A stretch of 44,990 nt of DNA from a virus (lineage: Duplodnaviria; Caudoviricetes). The stretch's first letter is position 1. Each line of letters starts with the position of its first letter. The stretch lies in the IMG/VR virus record IMGVR_UViG_3300024287_000001, positions 1 to 44,990 of that record; one strand, given 5' to 3'. Under the pieces are notes generated by a model. That model made no database searches, was not told the DNA's origin, and saw nothing but the letters and a program-made list of their open reading frames with translations. The position numbers and the translations under genes are program-made. Positions 19,927-33,154 of the stretch are shown one piece after another.

Positions 19927-20731
19927 GTCGACTCCTGTCGTAGTACCTTGCTCGGTCACTCAACGGCCCTGAATACTCAAGGCAGTTGACGTTGTTGAAA
20001 CACATCTTGCACATGTACTTCTTCTTGGCCTGAATCTGCATGGATTCCATGGCAGTCCGAACCTCTTGATACTTGGCCCCGACTTCGGTCGGGTCCACCT
20101 CGGAAAGATCGATGGGCCTGGCGACTGCGGCACCAGGCGCCAGCATGCAGAACCGGCCCTTGAACTTGATGTCCTTGAACCTGGGATCCAGCTTCAGTCT
20201 GGCGCCATAGGTTTCCAGCTGGAAGTTGTTCGAGGGCTTCTTGTTGCCGGACTTCCAGTCGTCGATGATCGGGCCAAGCTTCTTGTGCTCACCGACGATG
20301 TCGACGAAGCAGGAAAGGTCCACGGACAGCCCTGGAAGGGGCCCTGAGGCATCGTACTCCACCTCCCAGACATCTATGTCCTCCAAGAACTCCAAGGCCC
20401 TCTCGAAGCAGTCCTTGACCCTCTGGAGAGCCTTGTCTCCGGTGATGAAGCCGTTCTTCTCGGAGCCACCAGCCAGCCACTTGGAGAGATCGGGTTCGAT
20501 CTCCATCTGGGCGGAGATGAGCGGGTAGAAGTAGTCCTCGGCATCGTCAATCGGGTGGGTGGTGTTAGTGAGGTGATCCTCAACCATCGAGTGAACCGCG
20601 GAACCGATCGGGATGTACCAGGTCTGCACCTGCTCAGCCTGGCGGAGCTTGGAGAGGTACCAGTTCCGCGGGCAGTCCTTGTACGTGGAGTACTGGCTGA
20701 AGCTGATGTGTGGCGGAAGAGAGTATGTCAT
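19907..20731 (-). CDS. Cas4/RecB-like PD-(D/E)xK exonuclease
   Basis: HISFSQ...CPRNWYL, GSAVH, FVD, DWKSG, QLETY, CKMC...C. Confidence 0.9.
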   Translation of the reverse strand: MTYSLPPHISFSQYSTYKDCPRNWYLSKLRQAEQVQTWYIPIGSAVHSMVEDHLTNTTHPIDDAEDYFYPLISAQMEIEPDLSKWLAGGSEKNGFITGDKALQRVKDCFERALEFLEDIDVWEVEYDASGPLPGLSVDLSCFVDIVGEHKKLGPIIDDWKSGNKKPSNNFQLETYGARLKLDPRFKDIKFKGRFCMLAPGAAVARPIDLSEVDPTEVGAKYQEVRTAMESMQIQAKKKYMCKMCFNNVNCLEYSGPLSDRARYYDRSRHDQPPF

Positions 20732-21375
20732 CCCCTCACCTTAGCAGCAGCGCGCTTCTTCTGCACGCTGGCCAAGTCACGCTCAGCCTTGCAGGGGCGG
20801 CACACGTAGCCGGTGCTTCCGCGGTCGGTCCTGGCCACCCACTCGTCATGGTTCTTGCTGCATCGAATCCCGCGACTGAAGGGGACGCGCTTAGGGCGCG
20901 GCTTCTTGGCCTGCTTGTTGCGCCACTTCTTCTGATACTCGGAGGAGCAGACTCGGCAGTACCGAGAACCGTTGCTCCTGGGCTGCCAGTCGTTGTGACC
21001 CTCGGAGCACGTGTCCTCAGGGTCCTCTGAAGGCTTGGGCCCCGCGGTCGGCCCGAGAGGCCGACCTTTGTTTCCGAAGGGGATCGGAGGCATGATTCCA
21101 GCCCTCATGGACCACTCAAAATCTTCAGGGCTGGCGGATGAGTAGCAGAGATGCCACATAGGGCAGCTGTCGCAGATCTTCTTGGCCGCAGCCATGTTGG
21201 TGTCGTTGAGATCCCTGATCTCCACGCTTGTCAGGCCCTCAGCTACGGCGTCGCCCGGAAAGGCGACGTCGAACAGACTTGAAGGACTGAAGGCGCAGGC
21301 TGCCTCATCCTGCCAAATCCAGGTGTCAACCTCCCAGTCGTACACGGGGTCGGTCAGCAGGTGGGTGGTCTTCAT
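20728..21375 (-). CDS. WhiB-family transcription factor with two extra C-terminal Cys/His modules
   Basis: WQDEAAC...AKKICDSCPMWHLC...WSMRAG; then CSEGH..CRVC and CSKNH..CRPC. Confidence 0.8.
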   Translation of the reverse strand: MKTTHLLTDPVYDWEVDTWIWQDEAACAFSPSSLFDVAFPGDAVAEGLTSVEIRDLNDTNMAAAKKICDSCPMWHLCYSSASPEDFEWSMRAGIMPPIPFGNKGRPLGPTAGPKPSEDPEDTCSEGHNDWQPRSNGSRYCRVCSSEYQKKWRNKQAKKPRPKRVPFSRGIRCSKNHDEWVARTDRGSTGYVCRPCKAERDLASVQKKRAAAKVRG

Positions 21376-21448
21376 CTCTCTTCACTCTCCGCCCAAGGGG
21401 ACACGCCTCAGCGTGGACCCGTAGATCAACTGTGGTTGCTTACTGAAT

Positions 21449-21463
21449 AGTCTGTAGAGAACT
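21449..21463 (-). promoter_or_regulatory. Leader motif AGTTCTCTACAGACT (14/15 identical to 30977-30991 on +)
   Basis: Direct comparison of two operon leaders. Confidence 0.45.
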
Positions 21464-21579
21464 GTACGGGCTGCCCTCCCTGGGGGTCGGACAGCCCTTG
21501 ACCTGCGAACTTCGCAAGCTTCACAGTTAAGGAAACGTTTTGATCATGCTCCTTTGTTCCCTCTAGAAATTTTTCATGG

Positions 21580-21595
21580 CGTGACGTACATCACA
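21580..21595. promoter_or_regulatory. CRP-like palindrome upstream of the replication operon
   Basis: CGTGA-N6-TCACA vs consensus TGTGA-N6-TCACA. Confidence 0.45.
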
Positions 21596-21601
21596 TCACT
21601 C

Positions 21602-21703
21602 TCAGTGCATCCCCTTGGACTTGGCGTAGAAGTACATGATCAAGCCCAGGATGCCAACCAGGAGCATCAGGTCCCCTAGGCCACGCTTCTTCTTCTCGTT
21701 CAT
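21602..21703 (-). CDS. 33-aa membrane protein
   Basis: MNEKKKRGLGDLMLLVGILGLIMYFYAKSKGMH; ATGA coupling. Confidence 0.65.
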   Translation of the reverse strand: MNEKKKRGLGDLMLLVGILGLIMYFYAKSKGMH

Positions 21704-21819
21704 GACTCCTCTTCCTCGGTCATTCTGACCTGATTCCGGGCAGCACTGAACAGCGCTGCATCTTCGTCGTACTCATACCCAGCAAACGACTCGTCAGACA
21801 TTGCGTCGTAGTTGTGCAC
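21700..21819 (-). CDS. 39-aa acidic microprotein
   Basis: SD AGGGAG before the GTG; MHNYDAMSDESFAGYEY... Confidence 0.55.
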   Translation of the reverse strand: MHNYDAMSDESFAGYEYDEDAALFSAARNQVRMTEEEES

Positions 21820-21851
21820 AGGTTCTCCCTAAACGGAATGGGTGACGCTTG

Positions 21852-21860
21852 TGGTACTAT
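21852..21860 (+). promoter_or_regulatory. Extended -10 promoter giving a leaderless mRNA
   Basis: TG-G-TACTAT ends 7 nt before ATG 21868; no SD. Confidence 0.55.
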
Positions 21861-21867
21861 GTGCCAC

Positions 21868-22629
21868 ATGAAGACAACTGTGGTCGTTCCCGACATCCAG
21901 TGGCCCTATCATGATGGGGTCGCACTCAAAAAGGTGCTTAAGGTCATTGAGGACGTGCAGCCCTCTCAGGTAGTGCAGATCGGTGACGGCATCGACTTTC
22001 CCCAGGTGTCCCAGTGGTCTGTAGGTACGGCAGGAGCCTACGCACAGGACCTTCAGGAGCACATTGAGGGGTACCGCAAGGGTTTCCTTGCAGCGGTCCG
22101 AGATCGGGCCCCTAGGGCCCGTCTGCGGTGGCTGGAGGGCAATCACGACTTGCGCATCACTGCGTTCGTCAAGAAGTACGCTCCAGCCCTCTCGTCTCTC
22201 TCTTCCCTGTCGATGCCGTCACTGTTCGATCTGGAACCGCTTGGCTGGTCCTATGAGCAGGGCCCGATCAACATCGGGACCAACGTCTACGCGATCCACG
22301 GCCATGAGGCACCGGGGTACGCGCAGACCATCTCAGCATGGGACACCAAGTATGCCAAGCGCTACGGGTCGCACCGTTCCTACGTGTTCGGTCACACTCA
22401 CCAGCCTGCCCTTGTCACCCGAGCATTCGGATTCGAGGGCAAGGTGGACAGTCGCTTCACCATGAACGTCGGAAGCATCATGGATCCAGTGAAGGCCACC
22501 TACGTCAAGGACGGTAGTGTCTCCTGGACCATGTCTTTCGGACTGATTCACGATGACGGGAAGAGAGTGTACCCGGAGCTTGTTTGCATGACTGATCGTG
22601 GATTTTTTCTGGAAGGCAGGAAGTACTGA
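21868..22629 (+). CDS. Metallophosphoesterase (calcineurin-like)
   Basis: PDIQ, IGDGID, EGNHD, HGH and FGHTH motifs. Confidence 0.9.
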   Translation: MKTTVVVPDIQWPYHDGVALKKVLKVIEDVQPSQVVQIGDGIDFPQVSQWSVGTAGAYAQDLQEHIEGYRKGFLAAVRDRAPRARLRWLEGNHDLRITAFVKKYAPALSSLSSLSMPSLFDLEPLGWSYEQGPINIGTNVYAIHGHEAPGYAQTISAWDTKYAKRYGSHRSYVFGHTHQPALVTRAFGFEGKVDSRFTMNVGSIMDPVKATYVKDGSVSWTMSFGLIHDDGKRVYPELVCMTDRGFFLEGRKY

Positions 22630-23306
22630 TGACCTTTCTCGATGAGGTTGAGCCGCTCGTTCTCAAGGCGGCGATTGCAACTGTGCGGAAGTGGCCTTCC
22701 TATGTCGCGCTGGAGGATGTGGAGCAGGAGCTGAGGCTCTGGACTCTCACTAAGCAGAACTCCATCGAGACGGCCATGCGAGTGCAGGGCTGGGAAGCCA
22801 AGGTCTACTCCACGATGCTGAAGGTCGCTTCTAGCGCCGCATCTCTGGAGGACCAGCAGACAAATGGTTATTCAAAGGAGGACACGTACTCATATTCAGT
22901 ACCTGTCCTCGAAACACTTCTGGAATCCTGCTTCACCCATGAGGACTGGCAGTCGTTCGGCACCTTCGGTGACGGCATGCCACACGCCAAGGGCCAGGTC
23001 AATGAGACTGGTGACGTGCTGGCGATGCTCTCGGACGTGAAGGCTGGACTTGCCACCCTGAAGGCGGAGTACAGGGAGGTCCTGTACTACCGGTTCGGAC
23101 TCAAGTACACACACGAGGAGTTCGGGGAGCTCAAGGGCATCACCAAGGGCACGGCTCACCAGCGTTCCAGGCGAGCCGTAAGGGCCTTGCAGGCGGCCCT
23201 TGGGCAGGTGGACCTCACCGAGCTCCAGAACGGCTGGAGCGAGCGCAGAGAGGTTTTCAACAGTGATCGTTCCCAGATCTTGACGGAGCGGCAGTACAAC
23301 GGATGA
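22629..23306 (+). CDS. Sigma-factor-like protein (region 4 HTH)
   Basis: LEDVEQEL region-2-like segment; REVLYYRFGLKYTHEEFGELKGITKGTAHQRSRRA. Confidence 0.72.
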   Translation: MTFLDEVEPLVLKAAIATVRKWPSYVALEDVEQELRLWTLTKQNSIETAMRVQGWEAKVYSTMLKVASSAASLEDQQTNGYSKEDTYSYSVPVLETLLESCFTHEDWQSFGTFGDGMPHAKGQVNETGDVLAMLSDVKAGLATLKAEYREVLYYRFGLKYTHEEFGELKGITKGTAHQRSRRAVRALQAALGQVDLTELQNGWSERREVFNSDRSQILTERQYNG

Positions 23307-23311
23307 CCAGC

Positions 23312-23342
23312 AAGGCCCGGCACTCCGGTGCCGGGCCTTTTT
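23312..23342 (+). terminator. Intrinsic terminator between convergent genes
   Basis: AAGGCCCGGCAC-TCCG-GTGCCGGGCCTT followed by a T run. Confidence 0.88.
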
Positions 23343-23344
23343 GG

Positions 23345-23689
23345 TTACTTCACGTCGTACGCCCGAACATGCGCCCGATTGAGCGTGAAGGTGTTTCCGG
23401 TCTTCACGTTCTCTGCGAGTGCCAGCGGAGCGCCGTTCACCTTTGCCGCGGTGACGTGGTGGATGTAGACCTCGTTGCCGCCCATGGTGCGATACGTCTC
23501 CCCCTCCTCGAAGAACGGCTCAGGAGCGAGCTCCCAATTCTTCAATTCGTCGTCCTCATAGAGCCGAACGTTGTTGTGGTGCCCTTCTCGCACGACGTAG
23601 AAATACCCCTCCACGCTTCCGATGTAGAGCCAGCGGCTGCGACTGCCAGACCGACGGATGACCTCTCCCACCTTAGGGAAGTAGTCCAT
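23345..23689 (-). CDS. Hypothetical protein
   Basis: TAATG-coupled start MDYFPKVG. Confidence 0.7.
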   Translation of the reverse strand: MDYFPKVGEVIRRSGSRSRWLYIGSVEGYFYVVREGHHNNVRLYEDDELKNWELAPEPFFEEGETYRTMGGNEVYIHHVTAAKVNGAPLALAENVKTGNTFTLNRAHVRAYDVK

Positions 23690-24210
23690 TACCTGTTCCT
23701 CACCTTCACGTAATACTTCTTCATGTTCTCGTTCGAATCGGGCTGGATCTGCCCGGTTGCCAGGTCCTCCAGCAATACGCACTTGTTCCCTACGGCAATG
23801 ACCTTGCCGTGGTAGTAGCGCTGACTCCTGGATACAATGTTGCCGACCTGCCACTCCTCGTTCTTGCGAAGGAGTTCCGGGTCGGACCTGGTGTACTCGG
23901 TATACTTCCAGTACGGAGAATCCAGTGGTGCGAAGTCTCCGAACCGGCAGTCTGACGAGACAATCCATGCGTGCTCGCCATTGGTCCACGCAACAAGGTG
24001 GACCTTTGTGGTGAATGGAGACTTGAAGACTGCCCCCTCATGGAGAGGGGGCGTGCCAGCCTTCACGTCCTTGGTCAGCATGCCATGGAAGCCGTCAACG
24101 ATCCGGCGGCAGAACTTGGTGAGGGATTCCTCATCCTCCGCCCCCTTGTCGATCAGTTCCTCCAGCCATTCGACCTGCTTAGCTCTGGTCGGCAGGGTCA
24201 ATCGTCTCAC
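23689..24210 (-). CDS. Hypothetical protein
   Basis: Contiguous ORF, 173 aa. Confidence 0.7.
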   Translation of the reverse strand: MRRLTLPTRAKQVEWLEELIDKGAEDEESLTKFCRRIVDGFHGMLTKDVKAGTPPLHEGAVFKSPFTTKVHLVAWTNGEHAWIVSSDCRFGDFAPLDSPYWKYTEYTRSDPELLRKNEEWQVGNIVSRSQRYYHGKVIAVGNKCVLLEDLATGQIQPDSNENMKKYYVKVRNR

Positions 24211-24409
24211 TCTCCATGGTCACTCGCCCGATGGCGCGGAACACCGGCCGCGTGGTGGTCACCGACTTGTGGACGTACCATTCGGTGTTGGGGTAGATCT
24301 GCGCCAACTCCAGAGCCTTCGCCTGAGCCTGGGGGAGCTCACCATCCTCGAACCTGTAAGAGTTTATGTACGGTTCGGTCAGGTTGACGTCGTCGCTCAC
24401 GTAGTGCAT
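24179..24409 (-). CDS. Hypothetical protein
   Basis: SD AAAGGA before ATG. Confidence 0.65.
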   Translation of the reverse strand: MHYVSDDVNLTEPYINSYRFEDGELPQAQAKALELAQIYPNTEWYVHKSVTTTRPVFRAIGRVTMESETIDPADQS

Positions 24410-24426
24410 ACGCTTCCTTTCGTAGC

Positions 24427-24478
24427 AGGGCCATAGGCCGACAGGAGGGAGAGAGGTCTCCTGTCGACTTAAAGCCCT
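24427..24478 (-). ncRNA. Candidate anti-SD hairpin RNA complementary to the shared early-gene RBS
   Basis: GUCGACAGGAG-ACCUCUCUCC-CUCCUGUCGGC; complementary to GCCGACAAAGGGAGAGAG. Confidence 0.6.
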
Positions 24479-24497
24479 ACCCCCGAAGAGGCAGGGC
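24474..24497 (-). terminator. UUCG hairpin (terminator-like) overlapping the 5' arm of the anti-SD hairpin
   Basis: GCCCUGCCUC-UUCG-GGGGUAGGGC-UUU. Confidence 0.5.
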
Positions 24498-24508
24498 GGT
24501 TTTCTCTC

Positions 24509-24682
24509 CTACTTTTCGATCGGGTGAACGAACTCGGAGGGGAAGAGCTCGAAGTCTCGAACTCCCTCCCACTCAAAGCCGACAACGCTCATCGGCCGGT
24601 TGTCGACAGACGAAACCTCCATCAGGAGGACGCCATCGAAATCCGCGTAGCCAGGTGCATCGACAACCCTGACGTCATTCAT
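24509..24682 (-). CDS. 57-aa hypothetical protein (absent from the ORF track)
   Basis: SD GGAGG; MNDVRVVDAPGYADFDGVLLMEV... Confidence 0.7.
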   Translation of the reverse strand: MNDVRVVDAPGYADFDGVLLMEVSSVDNRPMSVVGFEWEGVRDFELFPSEFVHPIEK

Positions 24683-24698
24683 GGTACCTCCACTAGAT

Positions 24699-24800
24699 GG
24701 GCGGAAAGGGATGCATGAGGGGAAGTTCTTACCATCATAGGCGTGCGCTCCTAGGTAAGTGCCTACTTATGTTCGGCACCTCATGCATCCTTTACCGCCC
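24699..24800 (-). ncRNA. Branched structured RNA closed by a ~20-bp stem
   Basis: Arms 24699-24720 and 24779-24800; inner helices 24728-33/24754-59, 24738-41/24750-53, 24759-63/24775-79. Confidence 0.55.
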
Positions 24801-24822
24801 ACCCCGAAGGGTGGGCGTACTG

Positions 24823-25008
24823 CTAGTTACCCTTGTGCCTTGCGACTGCTGCGACTCCCGCAAAGAAGATGCTGTAGCCGACGAACGCTCCACCAGCCAG
24901 GGAAACGAGAATCTGATTCCCCGGTGTGGTGAACGCGTAGATCAGCCCCAGGACCCCGACAACACCAAGAAGGCTGCTAGCGGTTGCCATTGCTGAAGAA
25001 AATCGCAT
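24823..25008 (-). CDS. Early membrane protein (2 TM)
   Basis: Shared SD AAGGGAGAGAG; two hydrophobic segments. Confidence 0.8.
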   Translation of the reverse strand: MRFSSAMATASSLLGVVGVLGLIYAFTTPGNQILVSLAGGAFVGYSIFFAGVAAVARHKGN

Positions 25009-25090
25009 CTCTCTCCCTTGATCAGCCCCTAGTTGGGCAAGTCAACCACCCTCCCTGAAGGGAGGGTGGCTCAATGAACACTAGGAACTA

Positions 25091-25543
25091 CTACTTCTTT
25101 TCATAGTACAGGTCGACCAGGCGTGCATGCAGAGCCTGCATGCCTCCGTCGCCATTGATGTCGTCACCGGGCAACGCCGTTTCGACGTGATCGATGTTGG
25201 CCGTGTTGAGGCGACCGCTGGGGTGGGCGTCCGAGATGGTGCCCTCACCCACCCTGTGCACCAAGGACTTGCCCCGGAGGGGGATGGTGTTCCTGAGCGC
25301 TTCCGCCTCGGCGCTGACGTCCTCGCCAACCATGGCGCGGGCCACCAGCTTTGCGGTCTCCCGAACCAGCTCGGGGCTCGGCTCCGTGTCGTCATCCACG
25401 ACCAGTTCGGTCTGAACGGCCCAAGGTCCTACGTAGGTGATCATGTAGGGCTGCTTGGAGTCCAGTTGCCGAACGTTGTTGCGGTCGGAGATGCCGTTCT
25501 CGGCGGGGTTCATGTCGCCCATCGAGTCACACTTCCAGCACAT
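25091..25543 (-). CDS. Early hypothetical protein
   Basis: Shared SD directly upstream. Confidence 0.8.
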   Translation of the reverse strand: MCWKCDSMGDMNPAENGISDRNNVRQLDSKQPYMITYVGPWAVQTELVVDDDTEPSPELVRETAKLVARAMVGEDVSAEAEALRNTIPLRGKSLVHRVGEGTISDAHPSGRLNTANIDHVETALPGDDINGDGGMQALHARLVDLYYEKK

Positions 25544-25621
25544 TTTCTCTCTCCCTTGATTGTTCTGATCGGCTGTAGTGCCGTCTCAACGCACGGCCCG
25601 GAGGCCGTGCGCTCAGCTTAG

Positions 25622-25756
25622 CTACAGAGTTTCGTCGTCCAGCTCCCAGTCAAGCGCGGTGTTTTCGTCGTTCTCTTCGTCTGCCATGATCACCTCACAG
25701 GCGTAGCAGTCGTACAGCGTTCCGGGCCAGTGCGGGTAATCCACGTGATTCACCAT
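25622..25756 (-). CDS. 44-aa early protein
   Basis: MVNHVDYPHWPGTLYDCYACEV...; stop lies in the repeat stem. Confidence 0.65.
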   Translation of the reverse strand: MVNHVDYPHWPGTLYDCYACEVIMADEENDENTALDWELDDETL

Positions 25757-25965
25757 GACTCATCCTCCTCCGAGAACATGAGATCCCACACCCTTGCGGG
25801 GTAGTTCTCTAGGTGCTGCTCGATCTCCGCAGCGGTCGCGTAGAGACTGCCGTCACCGTGGTACTCACGGCACAGCCAAACCTCTTGACCCTCTGCATTG
25901 ACCTCGAACACGCCCCAAGTGGCGTAGTGGCGCTTTTCGATGCGGAATGCCTGATTGCGCCTCAT
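25750..25965 (-). CDS. Early hypothetical protein
   Basis: ATGA coupling; SD AGGAG. Confidence 0.7.
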   Translation of the reverse strand: MRRNQAFRIEKRHYATWGVFEVNAEGQEVWLCREYHGDGSLYATAAEIEQHLENYPARVWDLMFSEEDESW

Positions 25966-26354
25966 GATTCACCGCTCCTGTCAACCACCGTGAAGATGGT
26001 GACGACGGAGGGGTCGCCGGGCCTTGACGGGCGAAGAATGGCCCCGTCGACGGTGGCGTTGTCCACCTTCACCGAGCTCAACTGCGCGATGTCTTGGCTG
26101 GACCACTCAATCCAGAGGGTGGTCGCTTCCGCCTCGGTGTCCACGAAGTGCTCCGTGGTTCCGTAGCGGTACTCACCCTTGGTGTTATTGGTGATCCGGA
26201 TGTGGAATCGCTTCGCGGCATTCCGGCGCCGCTCGATGTCCGTGTTGACCAGCCCAAAAAGGGCTGCGTCGTAGTCGTCCTCGGTAAGCAGGCCGCGGTC
26301 GAACTTCTGGGAGGCCATTTCGATGGACTGCCACAGTTCGATGTTGTCGCTCAT
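25962..26354 (-). CDS. Early hypothetical protein
   Basis: Start reassigned to MSDNIELW after the shared SD. Confidence 0.8.
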   Translation of the reverse strand: MSDNIELWQSIEMASQKFDRGLLTEDDYDAALFGLVNTDIERRRNAAKRFHIRITNNTKGEYRYGTTEHFVDTEAEATTLWIEWSSQDIAQLSSVKVDNATVDGAILRPSRPGDPSVVTIFTVVDRSGES

Positions 26355-26429
26355 TCTCTCTCCCTTTGTCGGCTGAGATGCCGTCCCAACCAACGGGCCG
26401 CCGAAGCGGCCCGAAGGCTCGGAGTGGTC

Positions 26430-26726
26430 TCAGCTGTCGAGCATGTATTCCCACGCGGCGGTGAGGTTGTCGTAGTCCTCCTGGTGATTCCAGGCGTTCA
26501 GCTGCTCCCCGGTGAGCTCAAAGCCGTAGGCGGTCTGCCGCTTACGGTCTCCATACAGGCCGATGAGCGGCAGAGCGTCCATGTAGTGCCCGTAGAGCTG
26601 CCCCAGGATGCAGTCCTCCTGACTGCCGAGATCCAGGATGGTGCGCTCAATCTCTCCGCGCCATCCGGGCCGGATGTCGTCCAGGAATTCCATGCCAGCC
26701 TGCACACGCTCAAGTGTGGTAGCCAT
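26430..26726 (-). CDS. Early hypothetical protein
   Basis: Start MATTLERV after the shared SD; stop in the repeat stem. Confidence 0.8.
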   Translation of the reverse strand: MATTLERVQAGMEFLDDIRPGWRGEIERTILDLGSQEDCILGQLYGHYMDALPLIGLYGDRKRQTAYGFELTGEQLNAWNHQEDYDNLTAAWEYMLDS

Positions 26727-26802
26727 TTTCTCTCTCCCTTTGTCGATCATCATGTGGCCATGATGCCGTCGCAACGCTCCCTTTCGGGAGCGCTCCGAGT
26801 GG

Positions 26803-27027
26803 TCATGGACGGTTGGCGCCCGGCAGGCCCTGCAGCTTGCCGTACTTGTTGATCCACCTGAACACCTTGCATTCACCGACGCCGATTCCCCCGGTCCACG
26901 TCAGGGGCTTCCAGCACGTGAAGCAGAGGACCTCTTCGTGGTGGTCATGAAAGAACACAACCAATTGGCTGGGTTCTTTCGGGCAACGGTCGCAGGACTT
27001 GAAGATGGGGCCTGTGTACTTAGCCAT
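26803..27027 (-). CDS. Early protein with two CxxC motifs
   Basis: TGATG-coupled MAKYTGP; stop in the repeat stem. Confidence 0.7.
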   Translation of the reverse strand: MAKYTGPIFKSCDRCPKEPSQLVVFFHDHHEEVLCFTCWKPLTWTGGIGVGECKVFRWINKYGKLQGLPGANRP

Positions 27028-27215
27028 CAGATGCTCACCATCTTTCCGTCCAGGTAGGTGTAGCACGTCTTGTTGGTGCTGTCGTACCGACCCAGAACGC
27101 GGTACGCCCCAGCCTTGCTGAGGCCGGTGTAAATGGCGATTGCGTGGTTACGCCAACCGAAGACATACGGGGCGAACACGCGGACCTCGAAATCCTTGCC
27201 CAGTTCAACACTCAT
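27027..27215 (-). CDS. Early hypothetical protein
   Basis: Shared SD directly upstream. Confidence 0.8.
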   Translation of the reverse strand: MSVELGKDFEVRVFAPYVFGWRNHAIAIYTGLSKAGAYRVLGRYDSTNKTCYTYLDGKMVSI

Positions 27216-27283
27216 TGTTCTCTCTCCCTTTGTCGGCTGAGATGCCGAGTCAAGCGGCCCCGGAGGGCCGCCTCACGCTGGTC

Positions 27284-27559
27284 TCAGACACTCTCGCTGC
27301 GAAGCTTGATGTCATTCAGTGTGCGAATGATGGTGTGGAGGCGGTCGAAAGCCTCGCGGGCGGTGTGGCCCAAAACGCCGTAATCGACGCCAATGGGCGA
27401 GTCGCCCATGCCGACGTACCGAATAGACCACGGAATGCCCATGCTGGGCGTGCCTTCGGTGTACTGCAAGCCGCCGTCAAGCAGGTCATGCGCCTGAAGC
27501 GTGCGAACGTAGGCGTCCACAGCGTTCTGAAGCATGCCCCTGGTGATTCGCTGCGCCAT
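27284..27559 (-). CDS. Early hypothetical protein
   Basis: Start MAQRITRG after the shared SD; stop in the repeat stem. Confidence 0.8.
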   Translation of the reverse strand: MAQRITRGMLQNAVDAYVRTLQAHDLLDGGLQYTEGTPSMGIPWSIRYVGMGDSPIGVDYGVLGHTAREAFDRLHTIIRTLNDIKLRSESV

Positions 27560-27632
27560 TGTTCTCTCTCCCATTCATTCGGCTGAGATGCCGTGGCAAC
27601 GGCCACTCAAGGGTGGCCGCTCCCGGGAGGTC

Positions 27633-27695
27633 TCAGACGGTGCGGTACAGGTAGCCGATGAACCAGACGAGCCCCGCAAGGGCCAGGAAGGCCAT
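27633..27695 (-). CDS. 20-aa hydrophobic peptide
   Basis: MAFLALAGLVWFIGYLYRTV; TGATG-coupled, stop falls on the repeat's TGA. Confidence 0.6.
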   Translation of the reverse strand: MAFLALAGLVWFIGYLYRTV

Positions 27696-27970
27696 CAGTA
27701 TTCGTCGTGGTGGCACGGCTGAGGCAGCCAGTACGGCTTCTGCCCCAGGCGCTCATCGATGGCGGCGGTGTCAAGGTAAATGGTGCCACTGCCATCCATC
27801 CGCCGGACGATGTACATACTGTCGCCGGACTCCGTGAATCCGAAGAACTGCCACACCTGGTAGACGTGCCCGTTCATCTCGAACACGCTGTCCAGGTACC
27901 ACTCATCCTTGCAACGGTCGCAGTACGCGGAACCGTCGACGGTGAAGTGTCGGCACTGTTCGTGCGTCAT
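27695..27970 (-). CDS. Early hypothetical protein
   Basis: SD GAGGAG before MTHEQC. Confidence 0.7.
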   Translation of the reverse strand: MTHEQCRHFTVDGSAYCDRCKDEWYLDSVFEMNGHVYQVWQFFGFTESGDSMYIVRRMDGSGTIYLDTAAIDERLGQKPYWLPQPCHHDEY

Positions 27971-27972
27971 GA

Positions 27973-28143
27973 TCAGATCTCCTCTTGGGTGCGAATAGCG
28001 CCGGAAAGGGTGACAGTCCATCCGGGAAAGCCCTGAATGGCTTCGGTGGCACGCTCGGTTGCATCCTCCAGGGAGTTGCCCCAGGCGGAGACAATGACGT
28101 CCGTGCCGTAGTCACTGATCATGATCGCTTCATACTCAATCAT
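27973..28143 (-). CDS. Early hypothetical protein
   Basis: Start MIEYEAI after the shared SD. Confidence 0.78.
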   Translation of the reverse strand: MIEYEAIMISDYGTDVIVSAWGNSLEDATERATEAIQGFPGWTVTLSGAIRTQEEI

Positions 28144-28210
28144 GTCTCTCTCCCTTTGGTCGGCTGAGATGCCGTCACAACGGCCCCCGAAGGGGCCGCT
28201 CTGAGTGGTC

Positions 28211-28351
28211 TCAGACGCAAGCGTCACAGTTGCAGAAGCTGATGATGATCAGACAATCTTCGCAGTCAACCTCAGTGGGTCGCAGCGACACGTCATCGTC
28301 GGCGGAGTTGAATTTCCCGCATGCGGTGAAGCTTTCTCCGTAGTGGATCAC
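28211..28351 (-). CDS. 46-aa Cys-rich early protein
   Basis: GTGA-coupled; H..ACG..VDCEDC..CNCDAC; stop in the repeat stem. Confidence 0.65.
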   Translation of the reverse strand: MIHYGESFTACGKFNSADDDVSLRPTEVDCEDCLIIISFCNCDACV

Positions 28352-28509
28352 GATTCGTCCTCGCTCTCGCGCTCCATCAGGATCAGCTCAATTGTGTGAG
28401 CTTCCTCCTGAGTGACGTTCAGCCAGCGAGTCTCCCCGTTGCTGGACGTCACCTTGACGCGCATGTCGGAGCCGCTCAGCTTGTTGAATTCGCGCTCGAT
28501 GTAGCCCAT
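28348..28509 (-). CDS. Early hypothetical protein
   Basis: Start MGYIEREF after the shared SD. Confidence 0.78.
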   Translation of the reverse strand: MGYIEREFNKLSGSDMRVKVTSSNGETRWLNVTQEEAHTIELILMERESEDES

Positions 28510-28576
28510 GATCTCTCTCCCTTTGTCGGCTGAGATGCCGTCGCAACGCTCCCTTTCGGGAGCGCTCCGAGTGGTC

Positions 28577-28786
28577 TCAGTAGACGTATCGATTGGCCGC
28601 GAAAGCCACTTCCCACTCCTGTGCGACGGGCCACCAGGCGACCACGTAGGTGCCTTCCTCGCGGTCATCCCAGAGGCTGATCTCCGCACCGGCGGCCAGC
28701 CATTCATCGGCTATCGCGCCGACACTTTCCTCCCGAGTGATGAAGCATTCGAGGGTTGCGCTGTCAATCAGGCGGTTGAGCATCAC
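28577..28786 (-). CDS. Early hypothetical protein
   Basis: GTGA-coupled; stop in the repeat stem. Confidence 0.7.
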   Translation of the reverse strand: MMLNRLIDSATLECFITREESVGAIADEWLAAGAEISLWDDREEGTYVVAWWPVAQEWEVAFAANRYVY

Positions 28787-28899
28787 GACTCATCCTCACT
28801 CTGCGTGGTGTACAGCTGGTTGCTGGCGGAGGTGATGAGGTCCATGTCCTCCAGCTCACTGAGCTCCCGGTTCATGCGTTCTTCGCAGAACGTGTCCAT
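28783..28899 (-). CDS. 38-aa acidic early protein
   Basis: MDTFCEERMN...; starts 2 nt after the previous stop. Confidence 0.55.
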   Translation of the reverse strand: MDTFCEERMNRELSELEDMDLITSASNQLYTTQSEDES

Positions 28900-28901
28900 G
28901 G

Positions 28902-29087
28902 TCAGTCCCCCCATACCCACGCTGCGCGGTCCGTGCAGGTTTCGCACGTTCCGCAAGTGCAGGTGACCTTGACGTCGTCCGCACCACACGCCCACAGAAT
29001 GTCGGCGTACAGGTCGGCCACGTCCCTTTCCCAGCCGCCCTGAGTGATCACTCGACCATCAGGCCACTTGACCGTAATTTCAAACAT
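28902..29087 (-). CDS. First early gene, C-terminal CxCxxCxxC
   Basis: Shared SD directly upstream. Confidence 0.78.
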   Translation of the reverse strand: MFEITVKWPDGRVITQGGWERDVADLYADILWACGADDVKVTCTCGTCETCTDRAAWVWGD

Positions 29088-29426
29088 GTCTCTCTCCCTT
29101 GTCTAAACGCACGGCATCGAGCCGTGCGCCTACAGCCACGGGAAGGGCCTCAAGACGGCCACAAGGACCACCAAGCGCCCTTCCCGCACTGTATAGCTAG
29201 GGAAAGAGAGAGGATGCGTGCGAACTCGATCAGGCCGCGTCGCTACCAGCATTACCCGTCATCCCAATCAAGGGATAAGCGACGGCTAGGGGCTGGACAC
29301 CCATTGCCTACGGACTGTCGCGCTACCTACTTGATCTAGGGCGCTCACCGCGAGCTCAACGGATGCTGTCATGGCGACAGGCACCTGATGCGCTTGCCCT
29401 CATGTTCGAGGGGCTCGCACGCTGCT

Positions 29427-29449
29427 CACTATTGAATTCACAAGGAACG
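29427..29449 (-). promoter_or_regulatory. rrn boxA-like antitermination element, copy 2
   Basis: CGTTCCTTGTGAATTCAATAGTG resembles the actinobacterial rrn boxA as recalled (GTT..TTGAGAACTCAAYAG). Confidence 0.65.
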
Positions 29450-29940
29450 TGGGTTCATTTCAGGGATTGTGAACGCGGTCTGCCATCCTGTCTGCGCCAA
29501 GCTCTGAAAGCCTTGACTAGGCTGTTGTAGCCCTCCGAAGAGAACCCGCCACGACACCGACTACGTGTCCCTGTCCTGCCACTACAGGGCCCCCTGGACG
29601 CTGCCTCACCTGACCGAGTGGCCCCAGGTCGCCTGCCCACCTGAGAGAGCGTGAGGGGGCATCCTGGAGCGTTCGGCGCGGTGCGACCCGTGAGGGAGCA
29701 CTGCTACCAGCGTGCCAACGTGTGTGTGTTGCGGGTAATGGTGCTGCCCCGCGTCTTGCTGTGTGACCAGGCTTGGAGTGTCCATCACGCCACTGACGTC
29801 CTGCCCTCCCGTAGGGGCTACGGACTAGCGTCAGTGCAACGCTTCTCACCCGCATGTCGCTGCGACCTGTACAAGCGCCTCTCGACTCCACCTGGCGCCC
29901 AAGGATCGGGCTCATGGGCATAGATCTGCCCGCTGGTGTG

Positions 29941-29964
29941 TTGGCACGCTGTTGAGTTCTCAAG
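29941..29964 (-). promoter_or_regulatory. rrn boxA-like element plus processing-stem 5' arm, copy 1
   Basis: CTTGAGAACTCAACAGCGTGCCAA matches the Streptomyces 16S leader as recalled; needs BLAST confirmation. Confidence 0.7.
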
Positions 29965-30489
29965 CCAGAGGCGCTCGGGCCTGTCCTGCGCCCTGCGCCC
30001 TCACGCCCCGCTGTGTGCTCGGGTCGTGCTGACAGGGAGAATCTCAACGGCAGTGAGCGCTTGCCATACAAGTCAAAGGTAGGTAAAGCCCGACCTACAG
30101 GAGGGCGCAAAGGGCCGCTGACCTGGGCTGATGGCCTTCTAAAGAATCTTGGAAACTCATGGCCTCTTGACTCGCTCTTTACCGAAACAGCCCTCGCGAG
30201 GTGGTTACTGATGAGTACGAAAGAAAGCACTTTCTAAAGGGTTTGTCCTTCAATGTCCTATGCACTACAAGCCTTGATACATAAGCAGGCTGTTTGGAAT
30301 CCATGGTCGCAGGGCCTGATGCCCTGCGTTCTGAAGGCAGATTGGTCGAAAGATCATGAGATCTAAGGGTCTGCCTGTAAGGGTTGGTGGGCTGTGGTGG
30401 TCCTTACTGTTGCCCTTCTCGTCAGGGTGACAATAGTCCCCCTCCTTCAAATCCATGCCTAAGCGCCCGCTTAGCCTTGATAATCCAGG

Positions 30490-30790
30490 CAGATTCATGG
30501 ATATCCCTGCGTTCAGCTACTTATCCGCCATTCATGGATATGAACAATTGCATGGGCCCTCAATTCAATGGACTGCCATTGGATTGTGCACAATCTATAT
30601 AGATTGCATGGGCCACCTATCTATGTAGCTATGCAAGTGTGCAGGCTGAAAGACTTAGGCGGAGTGGAATGCACAGCTGAAGACTTTAGGCTTGAAGGCT
30701 GCACATCCCAAGGCTTTCTCGATAAACTCTTCAGCCTGCATAAAGTTGACCCGGGCATGTTTAATCGGGGCCGTGTGTGTGTGTGTGAGA
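30490..30790. repeat. AT-richer block of short direct repeats (candidate genome terminus/origin region)
   Basis: ATTCATGGATAT x2, ATTGCATGGGCC x2, GCTGAA(A)GACTT(T)AGGC x2, (GT)7 tract. Confidence 0.6.
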
Positions 30791-30801
30791 CCCCTTCCAG
30801 A

Positions 30802-30817
30802 TGTAACATGGATCACA
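30802..30817. promoter_or_regulatory. CRP-like palindrome upstream of the late operon
   Basis: TGTAA-N6-TCACA. Confidence 0.35.
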
Positions 30818-31010
30818 GGGCAACAGTCCAGACAGTCTACGCAGAGTTACCAAAGAGGGGAGTCTATGTGACTCCCCGTAGATAGTTGGTAAAGGTTTGG
30901 TCAAGCAACGTCACTTGACGGCCAGGTGACGGGTATATCCAGTAGTGAGGGAACGAAGTGACCGAACAGTCTAAGTAGTTCTCTAAAGACTTTAAAAGAT
31001 TGAGTACTTC

Positions 31011-31036
31011 AGGGAACCCCCTTTAGGGGGGTTCCC
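31011..31036 (+). other. Strong hairpin in the late-operon leader
   Basis: GGGAACCCCC-TTTA-GGGGGGTTCCC. Confidence 0.6.
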
Positions 31037-31168
31037 GTAGAGCTCTCAAGTATTGAGTACTATAAAGGGGCCTACGGCTAACGCCGGATATTCCTCCGCC
31101 AACCACTGGTGGTTCCGCACGGATTGTGCGAAGCACGAATCGTGCAGATCTATTAAGGAGATTGGCGA

Positions 31169-33154
31169 ATGGCGAAAGTCTATGTCACCGAGGACGGGAA
31201 GCAGCACAAGAAGATTCCGGTAGCCCGGGTCCGGCCTAAAGCCGGACCTGAATCAAATGCCAGAAGCGGATCTCGCGGCGACCCCAAAGTCAGGGCGGGT
31301 AAGGAGACGGTACTCAAGTACCTCCAGCTCGGTCAGACTCAGAAGCAGGCTGCTGACGATTTGGGGATTCACCCCAACACGATTCAGTACTGGCGGAACA
31401 GTGACCAGAACTTCCGGGCCGACATGGACCGGGTCAAGCTCATGGCTCACCCGGAGACCGCTACGGAGATCCGGGCGAACATGCCGGACTTCCCGGAGTT
31501 CTGCATGGAGTACCTGGACACGCAGCTCTTCTGGCACCAGCTCCAGTGGTACGACATCCTTGAAGGCCGTGAGCCGCGGGACCTGCATCCGTCCCAGGTG
31601 TACAAGCCTGGTGACCCCGGCATGGTCATCGTCAACACTCCGCCGGAGCATTCGAAGTCCACGACCATCACCGTGAACTACGTGACCTACAGGATCTGCC
31701 AGGACCCGAACATCCGAATCATCCTGGTGTCTCAGACTCAGGAGATGGCCAAGCGCTTCCTGCGAGCGATCAAGGATCGCCTCGCTGGGGCCAACCAGTC
31801 GTACAAGAAGCTTCAGCGTGAGTTCGCCCCCAACGGCGGCTTCGATGCCAACAGCGCTTCCTGGACTGCTGACGCGATCTACATCAACGCAGAGAGCCGA
31901 GACTCGGGCGAGGCGACTCCGACCGTACAGGCCCTTGGCATGAATGGTCAGATCTACGGTAACCGAGCTGACCTTATCATCCTTGACGACACGGTGACGG
32001 GAAAGAACGCCCATGAGTTCGAGAAGCAGATCGACTGGATTCAGCGAGAAGTCATCAACCGGCTCTCGTATCCTGGGGGAACCCTCCTTCTGGTGGGTAC
32101 CCGACTGGCTCCTGTCGAGCTCTACTCCGAGATCCAGAAGCCTGAGTGGTACGGGCAGGACGAAGAGTCTCCCTGGACCTACCTCACTCAGCCTGCCGTC
32201 CTGGAGTTCGCTGACGACCCTGACGACTGGCATGTTCTCGCACCCTGGACCAACCGACCCCCGGTGTCGCTGGGAGCAAGACGACTGGTTCAAAAGAACG
32301 CAGACGGCCTCTACCCCTGGCACTCAGGAAAAGCCCTAGCAAGACGACGCGCAACGTCGTCCTCGCAGAACTGGGCGATGGTCTACCAGCAGGAGCAGGT
32401 GACAGCAGATGCCATCTTCCCGCCCGACAAGGTTGCGGCTTCTATCGACGGTATGCGAGCCGCTGGCTTCATGCAGCGTGGAGCACCGGGACATAGGTCG
32501 AACGGGATGGACGGTCTCTACGTCATTGGAGGTTTTGACCCTGCCATCACAGGACACTCCGCTGCCGTCATCCTTGGTGTCGATCGCGTGTCCGGAGTGC
32601 GGTGGGTCCTGGACGTATGGACCCGTCCCAACTGCAAGCCAGATGACCTCTTCGACAAGATCAAAGAGTGGACCGTCAAGTACCACGTGAACGAATGGGT
32701 CATCGAGAAGAACGCGATGAACCTCATGGTCACGCAGAACCGGGAACTCCGGAACTTCCTCGGCTCCCACGGCACACACCTCCGAGAGCACTTCACAGGC
32801 AACAACAAGAACGACATTGACTTCGGTGTCGCTTCCATGTCGATGCTCTGGGACGGCGCCCTGGAGGGCAAGGGGCTGATCCGGCTTCCGAGCCGGAGTC
32901 AGCAGGAAGGTGTCAAGGCTCTCGTTGAGCAGCTGGTCACCTGGTTCCCGCAGTCCAAGGCCAAGCAGGACACGGTCATGGCCCTGTGGTTCGCAGAGAC
33001 CAAGGCCCGCGAGATCGTCAACAACATTGAGGGCATCTTCCATCTGAACAACGAATACCAGTCCGAGCGCGACAAGCAGCGCAACGTAACCATTGACCTG
33101 GACTTCCTGTCGCAGGCTGCAACGGTTGAAGGATCAGGAGAATGGTGGGGATGA
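31169..33154 (+). CDS. terL: Terminase large subunit with an N-terminal HTH extension
   Basis: Walker A PPEHSKST, Walker B LIILDD, nuclease GFDPA, IEKNA, QDTVMALWF. Confidence 0.93.
   Translation: MAKVYVTEDGKQHKKIPVARVRPKAGPESNARSGSRGDPKVRAGKETVLKYLQLGQTQKQAADDLGIHPNTIQYWRNSDQNFRADMDRVKLMAHPETATEIRANMPDFPEFCMEYLDTQLFWHQLQWYDILEGREPRDLHPSQVYKPGDPGMVIVNTPPEHSKSTTITVNYVTYRICQDPNIRIILVSQTQEMAKRFLRAIKDRLAGANQSYKKLQREFAPNGGFDANSASWTADAIYINAESRDSGEATPTVQALGMNGQIYGNRADLIILDDTVTGKNAHEFEKQIDWIQREVINRLSYPGGTLLLVGTRLAPVELYSEIQKPEWYGQDEESPWTYLTQPAVLEFADDPDDWHVLAPWTNRPPVSLGARRLVQKNADGLYPWHSGKALARRRATSSSQNWAMVYQQEQVTADAIFPPDKVAASIDGMRAAGFMQRGAPGHRSNGMDGLYVIGGFDPAITGHSAAVILGVDRVSGVRWVLDVWTRPNCKPDDLFDKIKEWTVKYHVNEWVIEKNAMNLMVTQNRELRNFLGSHGTHLREHFTGNNKNDIDFGVASMSMLWDGALEGKGLIRLPSRSQQEGVKALVEQLVTWFPQSKAKQDTVMALWFAETKAREIVNNIEGIFHLNNEYQSERDKQRNVTIDLDFLSQAATVEGSGEWWG

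Follow-up and report, generated by a model that had tools for sequence, protein, structure and literature searches.

A hairpin loop complementary to nine early ribosome-binding sites: a candidate antisense RNA of a cluster BF-like Streptomyces phage

The start-associated sequences (SAS) of cluster K mycobacteriophages are 13-bp repeats with the consensus GGGATAGGAGCCC that precede 11-19 genes (Pope et al., 2011, PMC3203893). Four K1 phages carry a single copy in the opposite orientation, and the available text of that paper leaves open whether its partner is an RNA or a protein (PMC3203893). In the accessible parts of papers from 2024 and 2025 the role of SAS is still called unclear (SAS sources include PMC7302621, PMC11373665, and PMC12699233). 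Other described systems are close in mode of action, namely the c4 antisense RNA of phages P1 and P7, which acts at a ribosome-binding site (RBS), and the small RNAs OppZ and CarZ of Vibrio cholerae. Here, a hairpin on the minus strand of a viral DNA of 44,990 nucleotides (IMG/VR record IMGVR_UViG_3300024287_000001, positions 1 to 44,990; this whole stretch is called the window) is compared with these systems. An earlier sequence-only reading had proposed that it is directed against an RBS shared by nine early genes. Our analysis makes it fairly probable that the hairpin is a trans-acting antisense RNA, the open loop of which would pair with nine early RBS tags and damp their translation together. 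The terminase (31169-33154) is 60-64% identical to its counterparts in 29 cluster BF (Beephvirinae) records of Streptomyces phages and identifies the window as a cluster BF-like Streptomyces podophage. The region 24000-30000 matches the leftward small-gene arm of cluster BF phages, and its position and layout suggest that it is the early arm.

The tag GGGAGAGAG has exactly 10 exact matches on the two strands of the 45-kb window. Nine of them precede early starts, all in one orientation and 0-4 nt before the ATG (9/9), and the tenth, the sole copy of opposite orientation, lies inverted in the loop of the hairpin (24447-24455), away from any start. The nine tags are as follows.

25009 to 25017, minus strand: tag before start 25008, exact match
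25547 to 25555, minus strand: tag before start 25543, exact match
26356 to 26364, minus strand: tag before start 26354, exact match, 18-nt form
26730 to 26738, minus strand: tag before start 26726, exact match
27220 to 27228, minus strand: tag before start 27215, exact match, 18-nt form
27564 to 27572, minus strand: tag before start 27559, preceded by U, 9-bp match
28146 to 28154, minus strand: tag before start 28143, exact match
28513 to 28521, minus strand: tag before start 28509, exact match, 18-nt form
29090 to 29098, minus strand: tag before start 29087, exact match

The earlier claim that the core stands before all nine of these starts is thus borne out, with a preceding A in 8/9 cases. 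The 18-nt form, GCCGACAAAGGGAGAGAG, is exact before the starts 28509, 27215, and 26354. The description of the tag as shared by the early genes has to be narrowed: nine starts are tagged, but only the first gene of each cassette carries the tag and not every early open reading frame (ORF). Three Streptomyces genomes contain 11, 8, and 8 occurrences of the tag before an ATG.

The hairpin and its immediate surroundings comprise the following elements, of which the downstream Shine-Dalgarno (SD) sequence belongs to the next gene.

24424 to 24481, minus strand: antisense-loop hairpin; 9 bp, U·U, 2 bp, A·C, 11 bp, 10-nt loop
24448 to 24457, minus strand: loop ACCUCUCUCC, which holds CUCUCUCC, the complement of the tag core GGAGAGAG
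24474 to 24497, minus strand: upstream UUCG hairpin, an alternative fold that has its 3' strand in common with the lower stem of the antisense-loop hairpin
24179 to 24421, minus strand: downstream SD GAAAGGA (24421-24415) and 76-aa ORF with start 24409; not a loop target

The hairpin is found on the minus strand at the position claimed before, and fold energy and shuffles agree (-47 kcal/mol, z -4.1, equaled by 0/200 shuffles). It is longer than the approximately 20 bp at 24427-24478 that had been suggested, since it extends over 24481-24424 with 22 pairs and two mismatches. On the plus strand no ATG follows, as had been stated, and the G-U pairs of the hairpin favor the minus strand, which disfavors a decoy RNA made from the plus strand. 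An integron-type attC site was also rejected; its core motif does not fit, and the G-U pairs point to RNA. The long form (-47.0 kcal/mol) compares with -39.1 for the alternative with the UUCG hairpin, which is seen in all 25 folded versions described below, and the duplex of the loop with the downstream SD GAAAGGA reaches only -4.3. Searching 21000-31500 against Rfam at E values up to 1 gave no relevant match for the hairpin or for a second folded RNA at 24804-24695; a Thr leader match (E 0.56) was spurious and falls on a plus strand terminator. The exact hairpin pattern had 0 matches in viral contigs. A 7-nt tag remnant, GGAGAGA, is present nearby (24509-24503, minus strand) at the stop of a 57-aa ORF, and no start follows it. 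The SD of this ORF itself is untagged; a homolog sits behind a tag in one relative, and another relative carries a homolog elsewhere.

Relatives were collected via named records, the loop pattern, and neighboring proteins, and the protein-anchored search made no demand for the loop. This search found CUCUCUCC in a loop at 27/27 distinct loci with a candidate; the three loci without one had 1, 17, and 457 nt of upstream DNA. No relative that kept the tag and lacked the loop was encountered among the 27 loci with enough upstream DNA. Six of the 17 loci from the loop-pattern scan (L011, L014, L015, L020, L022, and L025) had no such fold or no tags and were discarded as chance matches, and 4/28 candidates were dropped as non-orthologous (a leader hairpin of the window, a second L043 site, L025, and a sense tag in L007). 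With L013 added from the protein-anchored search, the merged set comprised 25 distinct hairpin versions. In a separate hairpin outside the early arm (L043:12552, plus strand) the loop is UCCUCUCUCCUCC.

In the BF-type stems (18 sequences, 19 pairs) 342/342 cells are paired and both sides change in 10 pairs; in the window-type stems (6 sequences, 22 pairs; L013 was omitted because MAFFT misaligned it) 132/132 cells are paired and both sides change in 14 pairs. None of 500 shuffles reaches the pairing level of either set, although the structure was derived from these same sequences and relatedness inflates such counts. The stems vary through compensatory changes, but the loop core CUCUCUCC is invariant, and the 8-mer has an unpaired probability of 0.77-1.0 in 25/25 versions, so that the SD-complementary bases are indeed predicted to be in the loop. 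These data bear on the alternative that the loop match is due to chance or that it is an inverted relic of the repeat. By chance, each strand should contain 0.85 complements of 8 nt (a 10-nt complement is expected 0.05 times on the minus strand), the loop is of low complexity, and 19/1500 random 8-mers of the window sit in a comparably deep hairpin loop. However, the loop stays invariant and unpaired in relatives in which the identity of the neighboring protein to that of the window falls to 27-37%. Chance is largely refuted because the loop is conserved, and we regard it as hardly credible.

The conserved part of the loop-tag pairing comprises 8-10 bp. At 23 loci, an uninterrupted match of 8 or more bases to the hairpin of the same locus is present at 190/197 tagged starts; six of these bases are guaranteed by the search pattern. 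The pairing of 17 of 18 nt that had been described does exist for three starts, but it consists of 10 bp, a 1x2 internal loop, and 7 bp, the stem has to open for it, and it is not conserved. The extended duplex has an energy of -32.7 in the window versus -12 to -28 in relatives. The extension is mildly non-random in the window (P 0.012-0.028 with the conserved bases held, 0.0003 fully shuffled) and is perhaps a local refinement. Net cofold energies over the nine tags range from -2.7 to -13.0. The loop duplex has -14.2 at all nine tags versus -8.6 to -9.7 for the 16S tail, which was taken from a Streptomyces locus, while at 6/7 other starts tested the 16S tail wins or nearly ties. When 92 crude start calls were ranked by loop pairing, the nine tags came first (one counted twice), followed by a doubtful leader ORF at -16.0 and then by -13.5. 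Two further CU-rich segments of the early leader, 29213-29200 and 29650-29641 (minus strand), are complementary to part of the tag, and one of them forms the 10-nt loop of a hairpin. The sequence CUCUYUCCCCCCUUG is retained by BF phages at a distance of 130-460 nt upstream of the first tag; in window-type relatives it varies.

Covariation of loop and SD had been proposed as a check. It is visible at the level of groups, in that loop size tracks the G-run of the tag, but not as compensatory change in the core. The closest relatives of the window have the tag AAGGAGAGAG with two G in 39/40 starts outside the window and a 10-nt loop, whereas the tags of BF phages have three or more G in 142/148 cases and face a 12-13-nt loop that exposes one more C. 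The invariance of both cores would also be given by protein binding. It could thus be argued that loop and tag do not pair at all, that the hairpin is a processing or end-protecting structure with a protein-bound loop, and that the tag is a strong RBS or a protein site; several tagged phages without a mirror loop would agree with this. Binding of a protein leaves unexplained, however, the group-level tracking of loop size with the G-run and the exact complementarity in two unrelated families with different tags, so that we consider it unlikely.

The second of these families is found among the mycobacteriophages. In Anaya, the opposite SAS copy follows the last tagged gene. The 10-nt loop in which it lies, CCUCCUAUCC, is carried by a long irregular stem, and Amelie and Adephagia have the same loop-borne SAS complement. 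In Guillsminger, an SAS complement is also in a loop, at a different place and on a different stem, and this hairpin adjoins a start. The Anaya stretch is common to 171 Mycobacterium phage records; ten further loci were chosen by the loop pattern and are not independent. For comparison, 24/1500 random Anaya positions sit in such a loop. The K1 stem does not have the base motif of the BF hairpins described below. In Adephagia, genes 92 and 93 flank the hairpin, and late transcription appears to begin at this place, as far as the available text goes (PMC11373665). As read from their genomes, these unrelated K1/K5 mycobacteriophages have a tag that differs from that of the window, and a hairpin loop displays its complement.

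The base of the BF-like hairpin is shared with one other structure of the window.

24695 to 24804, minus strand: second folded RNA, a three-way junction with a GAA/AGUA loop, on the same U·U, 2 bp, A·C base as the hairpin

A scan of the whole window on both strands for helix, mismatch, 2 bp, mismatch, and helix gave two sites, the hairpin and 24804-24695. Across 23 loci the motif is present under the hairpin in 23/23 and under the second element in 21/23 cases; at the remaining two loci the second element is visible by eye, and six further matches have different mismatches. The upper mismatch of the second element is A·C and the lower Y·U in 21/21 cases each, neither of which the scan demanded. 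Its cargo across relatives is a junction RNA of 65-135 nt, with the GAA/AGUA loop in 18/21. The presence of the same base under two different cargos suggests an excision signal, and the conserved base makes it likely that both RNAs are cut out there. A double cut would release 24471-24432 (40 nt). RNase III is a candidate for the enzyme with about even chances. Its E. coli substrates have a helix of some two turns, with no fewer than 11 bp past the cut, and the window offers 22 pairs. The E. coli proximal box reads G-C, A-U/U-A, A-U, A-U/U-A; in the hairpin the G-C is mostly kept, A·C comes second, and the pair next to the cut is often G-C.

The hairpin adjoins the next SD, which is predicted to be less than 0.5 unpaired in 18/25 full-length folds and in 0/25 after the proposed cut. 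Together with the two mutually exclusive folds (median gap 9.7 kcal/mol), this would be compatible with a leader of the next genes that acts as a cis switch. Early mRNAs would bind the loop, alter fold or cleavage, and thereby set the expression of the downstream operon; nine tags per loop would suit a sensor, and the Guillsminger hairpin likewise adjoins a start. Yet the 8-9 bp formed with the loop would be too few to open more than 20 bp of stem, and the relatives do not have the complementarity needed for stem invasion. Furthermore, the second element has its own overlapping upstream hairpin (about 24820-24793) and the same base without a tag-matching loop; therefore, the switch geometry needs no loop. 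A cis switch is, in our view, doubtful as the main function.

Further features of the early arm concern the transcript from which an antisense RNA would be made.

25025 to 28580, minus strand: cassette stem-loops just 5' of the tags, candidates for processing by a single cut; they have an AG/UU step over a G·G mismatch
28580-28530, 28216-28162, 27287-27237, 26802-26766, 26434-26372, and 25088-25025, minus strand: cassette stems found by script
near 27636 and 25620, minus strand: two further cassette stems, found by eye
29941 to 29964, minus strand: 24-nt exact copy of a Streptomyces ribosomal RNA (rRNA)-operon leader element; candidate antitermination signal

An A-U, G-Y step over G·G is present in 6/9 cassettes of the window, in 31/44 window-type cassettes (null mean 5, maximum 12), and in 28/137 BF cassettes (null mean 14, maximum 26). 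A first test of the cassette motif gave 81/191 versus 80 in the control and was uninformative, because the motif is symmetric under that control. The stalk of the host pre-16S RNA has the same step over G·G in one of two duplexes, of which only one is cleanly readable. In Streptomyces, the source element of the 24-nt copy, which we take to be boxA, is located 174-216 nt before the 16S rRNA. A weaker copy exists near 29442 (minus strand), and 12/13 leaders of the relatives examined have a similar motif. The 24-nt copy is possibly a mimic of a host antitermination signal. Promoters of the sigma-70 type were not found near the hairpin, and 2 matches in 9.9 kb compare with 2.8 expected. Cassette stems, leader element, and promoter scan fit one long processed transcript.

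Based on these elements, the following course can be proposed. Host polymerase would make a single long early transcript, and the cassette stems would be cut so that each tagged gene obtains a short open leader. The shared base would then be cut on both strands, probably by RNase III, to free a hairpin of 40-55 nt, after which the UUCG hairpin would cap the upstream RNA and the SD of the next gene would be uncovered. The stable hairpin would accumulate and outcompete the 16S tail at the tags. The result would be a negative feedback by accumulation rather than a sharp timer based on position. The delay timer of the sequence-only reading is doubtful, as one loop is made per nine targets. The processed leaders could also be seen in a different light: the tags would be about 30 nt from the proposed processed 5' ends, and an RNA that is bound close to such an end can act as a barrier to 5' exonucleases. 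The RNA might thus pair with the tags and help the messages, by protecting processed ends or by storing them. However, it is the SD that would be covered, the calculated duplex is more stable than the one with the 16S tail, and the Adephagia counterpart lies in a late-transcribed interval, which renders a helping role quite improbable.

Several points weigh against an antisense RNA that is excised and pairs with the tags. The tag, its single mirror copy in a loop, the covarying stem, and the base common to one other RNA are directly readable from the sequence, and the antisense RNA itself is predicted from it. A single long transcript would yield one loop per nine tags; therefore, shut-off would need a much stabler RNA, recycling, or an unseen promoter. 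The 8-nt core is co-conserved with the tag without compensatory change in the BF-like family, the extension of the pairing beyond 8-10 bp is specific to the genome of the window and not kept in relatives, and the duplexfold energies given above leave out the strain of pairing inside a loop. The tracking of loop size with the G-run represents one evolutionary split, to which the window with its three-G tags and 10-nt loop is an exception. Among the mycobacteriophages, the loop of Hammy is degenerate although its tags are canonical, and a mirror loop was not found in AnnaSerena (whole genome), Pixie (36.6 of 61.1 kb), TM4 (8.8 kb), Yuna, and Hurricane (about 3 kb each). As for the excision, the register of the proposed cuts agrees poorly with the rules for E. 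coli RNase III, as far as these are given in the accessible text (PMC1540722): A·C stands where A-U is wanted, and G-C or C-G is found beside the cut in 12/18 BF hairpins and 19/21 second elements.

Other features of the region are only loosely connected with the hairpin. A near-identity search of phage records with 22000-30500 matched nothing, a search for distant relatives gave 5 weak matches, and the distant phage ct2KA10 (terminase 43%) has neither tag array nor hairpin. Only 1/16 small proteins of the early arm matches a PHROG, which is unnamed, and no informative family was found. Proteins with a sigma-70 region 4 (22629-23306, plus strand) and of the WhiB type (20728-21375, minus strand) are candidates for a later transcription switch. 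Downstream of the hairpin, 23345-24210 (minus strand) contains two genes, the products of which resemble small beta-barrel repeats by eye; the 173-aa product (phrog_12091) is conserved in all relatives. In a search for an RNA chaperone, no RNA-binding family was found among 21 nearby proteins (PHROGs, Pfam).

The observations can be combined into a wider picture, which we put forward tentatively and as a whole. Actinophages may repeatedly have evolved an RNA address system, consisting of a private RBS tag and one hairpin RNA with a complementary loop, and in BF-like phages a dedicated excision motif may release both the hairpin and an unrelated structured RNA, so that the end of the early operon would be a small-RNA cassette. 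If true, this would explain the cluster K SAS, a question open since 2011, and it would represent a way in which a lytic phage could restrain its early genes without a protein (BF phages have been described as virulent, e.g., Abafar, PMC11536984). The tag-loop pair is nearly absent from host genes and would be a compact orthogonal translation switch for Streptomyces. The hairpin is present in cultured phages, i.e., Manuel and RosePharie (S. lividans), Immanuel3 (S. griseus), and Abafar (S. coelicolor A3(2)), and is thus directly testable. Cultured hosts, 25 covarying versions, and a base common with a second RNA are what this locus adds.

The sequence-only reading knew of no equivalent in actinophages. 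The cluster K SAS are a published parallel, though without an assigned function (PMC3203893), and the hairpin itself is undescribed in the parts of the literature searched. No description of it, or of a loop-borne inverted tag, was found in the open-licence literature, whereby the figures and supplements of PMC3203893 and PMC11373665 were outside the search and may bear on this; the available text of the SAS papers (PMC3203893, PMC7302621, PMC11373665, PMC12699233) does not put the inverted copy in a hairpin loop. As far as these sources extend, SAS and the extended SAS-type elements (ESAS) of cluster K and of cluster EF Microbacterium phages resemble the window in several respects: a private, over-conserved RBS repeat precedes non-structural genes after wide intergenic gaps, and one opposite copy lies off any start. 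The SAS consensus is not present in the window, the tag of which is (A)GGGAGAGAG. ESAS are 17-bp DNA inverted repeats that are read as promoter and operator sequences and, in the text at hand, are not supported as RNA hairpins, whereas the upstream elements of the window fold as RNA stems with paired changes and without sigma-70 promoters above chance. The early RNA of T7 is not known to release an anti-RBS RNA. Like the window, it contains intergenic stems with internal loops, the cutting of which by RNase III leaves protective 3' hairpins (for the R1.1 substrate, see PMC1540722). The U·U, 2 bp, A·C base of the window departs from the E. coli RNase III proximal-box consensus. The hairpin also differs from c4 in having no match to the Rfam model. 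Processing of c4 is carried out by RNase P. In c4, a loop-borne complement blocks translation at an RBS, as is predicted for the hairpin, but, according to the available text, it controls the antirepressor operon of temperate phages, whereas the hairpin would address nine early genes (PMC12197685). OppZ and CarZ are cut from the end of an operon, pair with their own transcript, and inhibit its translation in a negative feedback (PMC7398697, available text). The hairpin is like them in position, since the nine tags lie 560-4640 nt upstream of it on its own strand. The text on OppZ and CarZ describes them as bacterial and RNase E-dependent (Hfq is a keyword), while the hairpin has a loop seed and a repeated target. 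Taken together, the hairpin fails the sequence tests of these systems, but in its proposed action it would work like c4 and OppZ/CarZ, and it is laid out like SAS.
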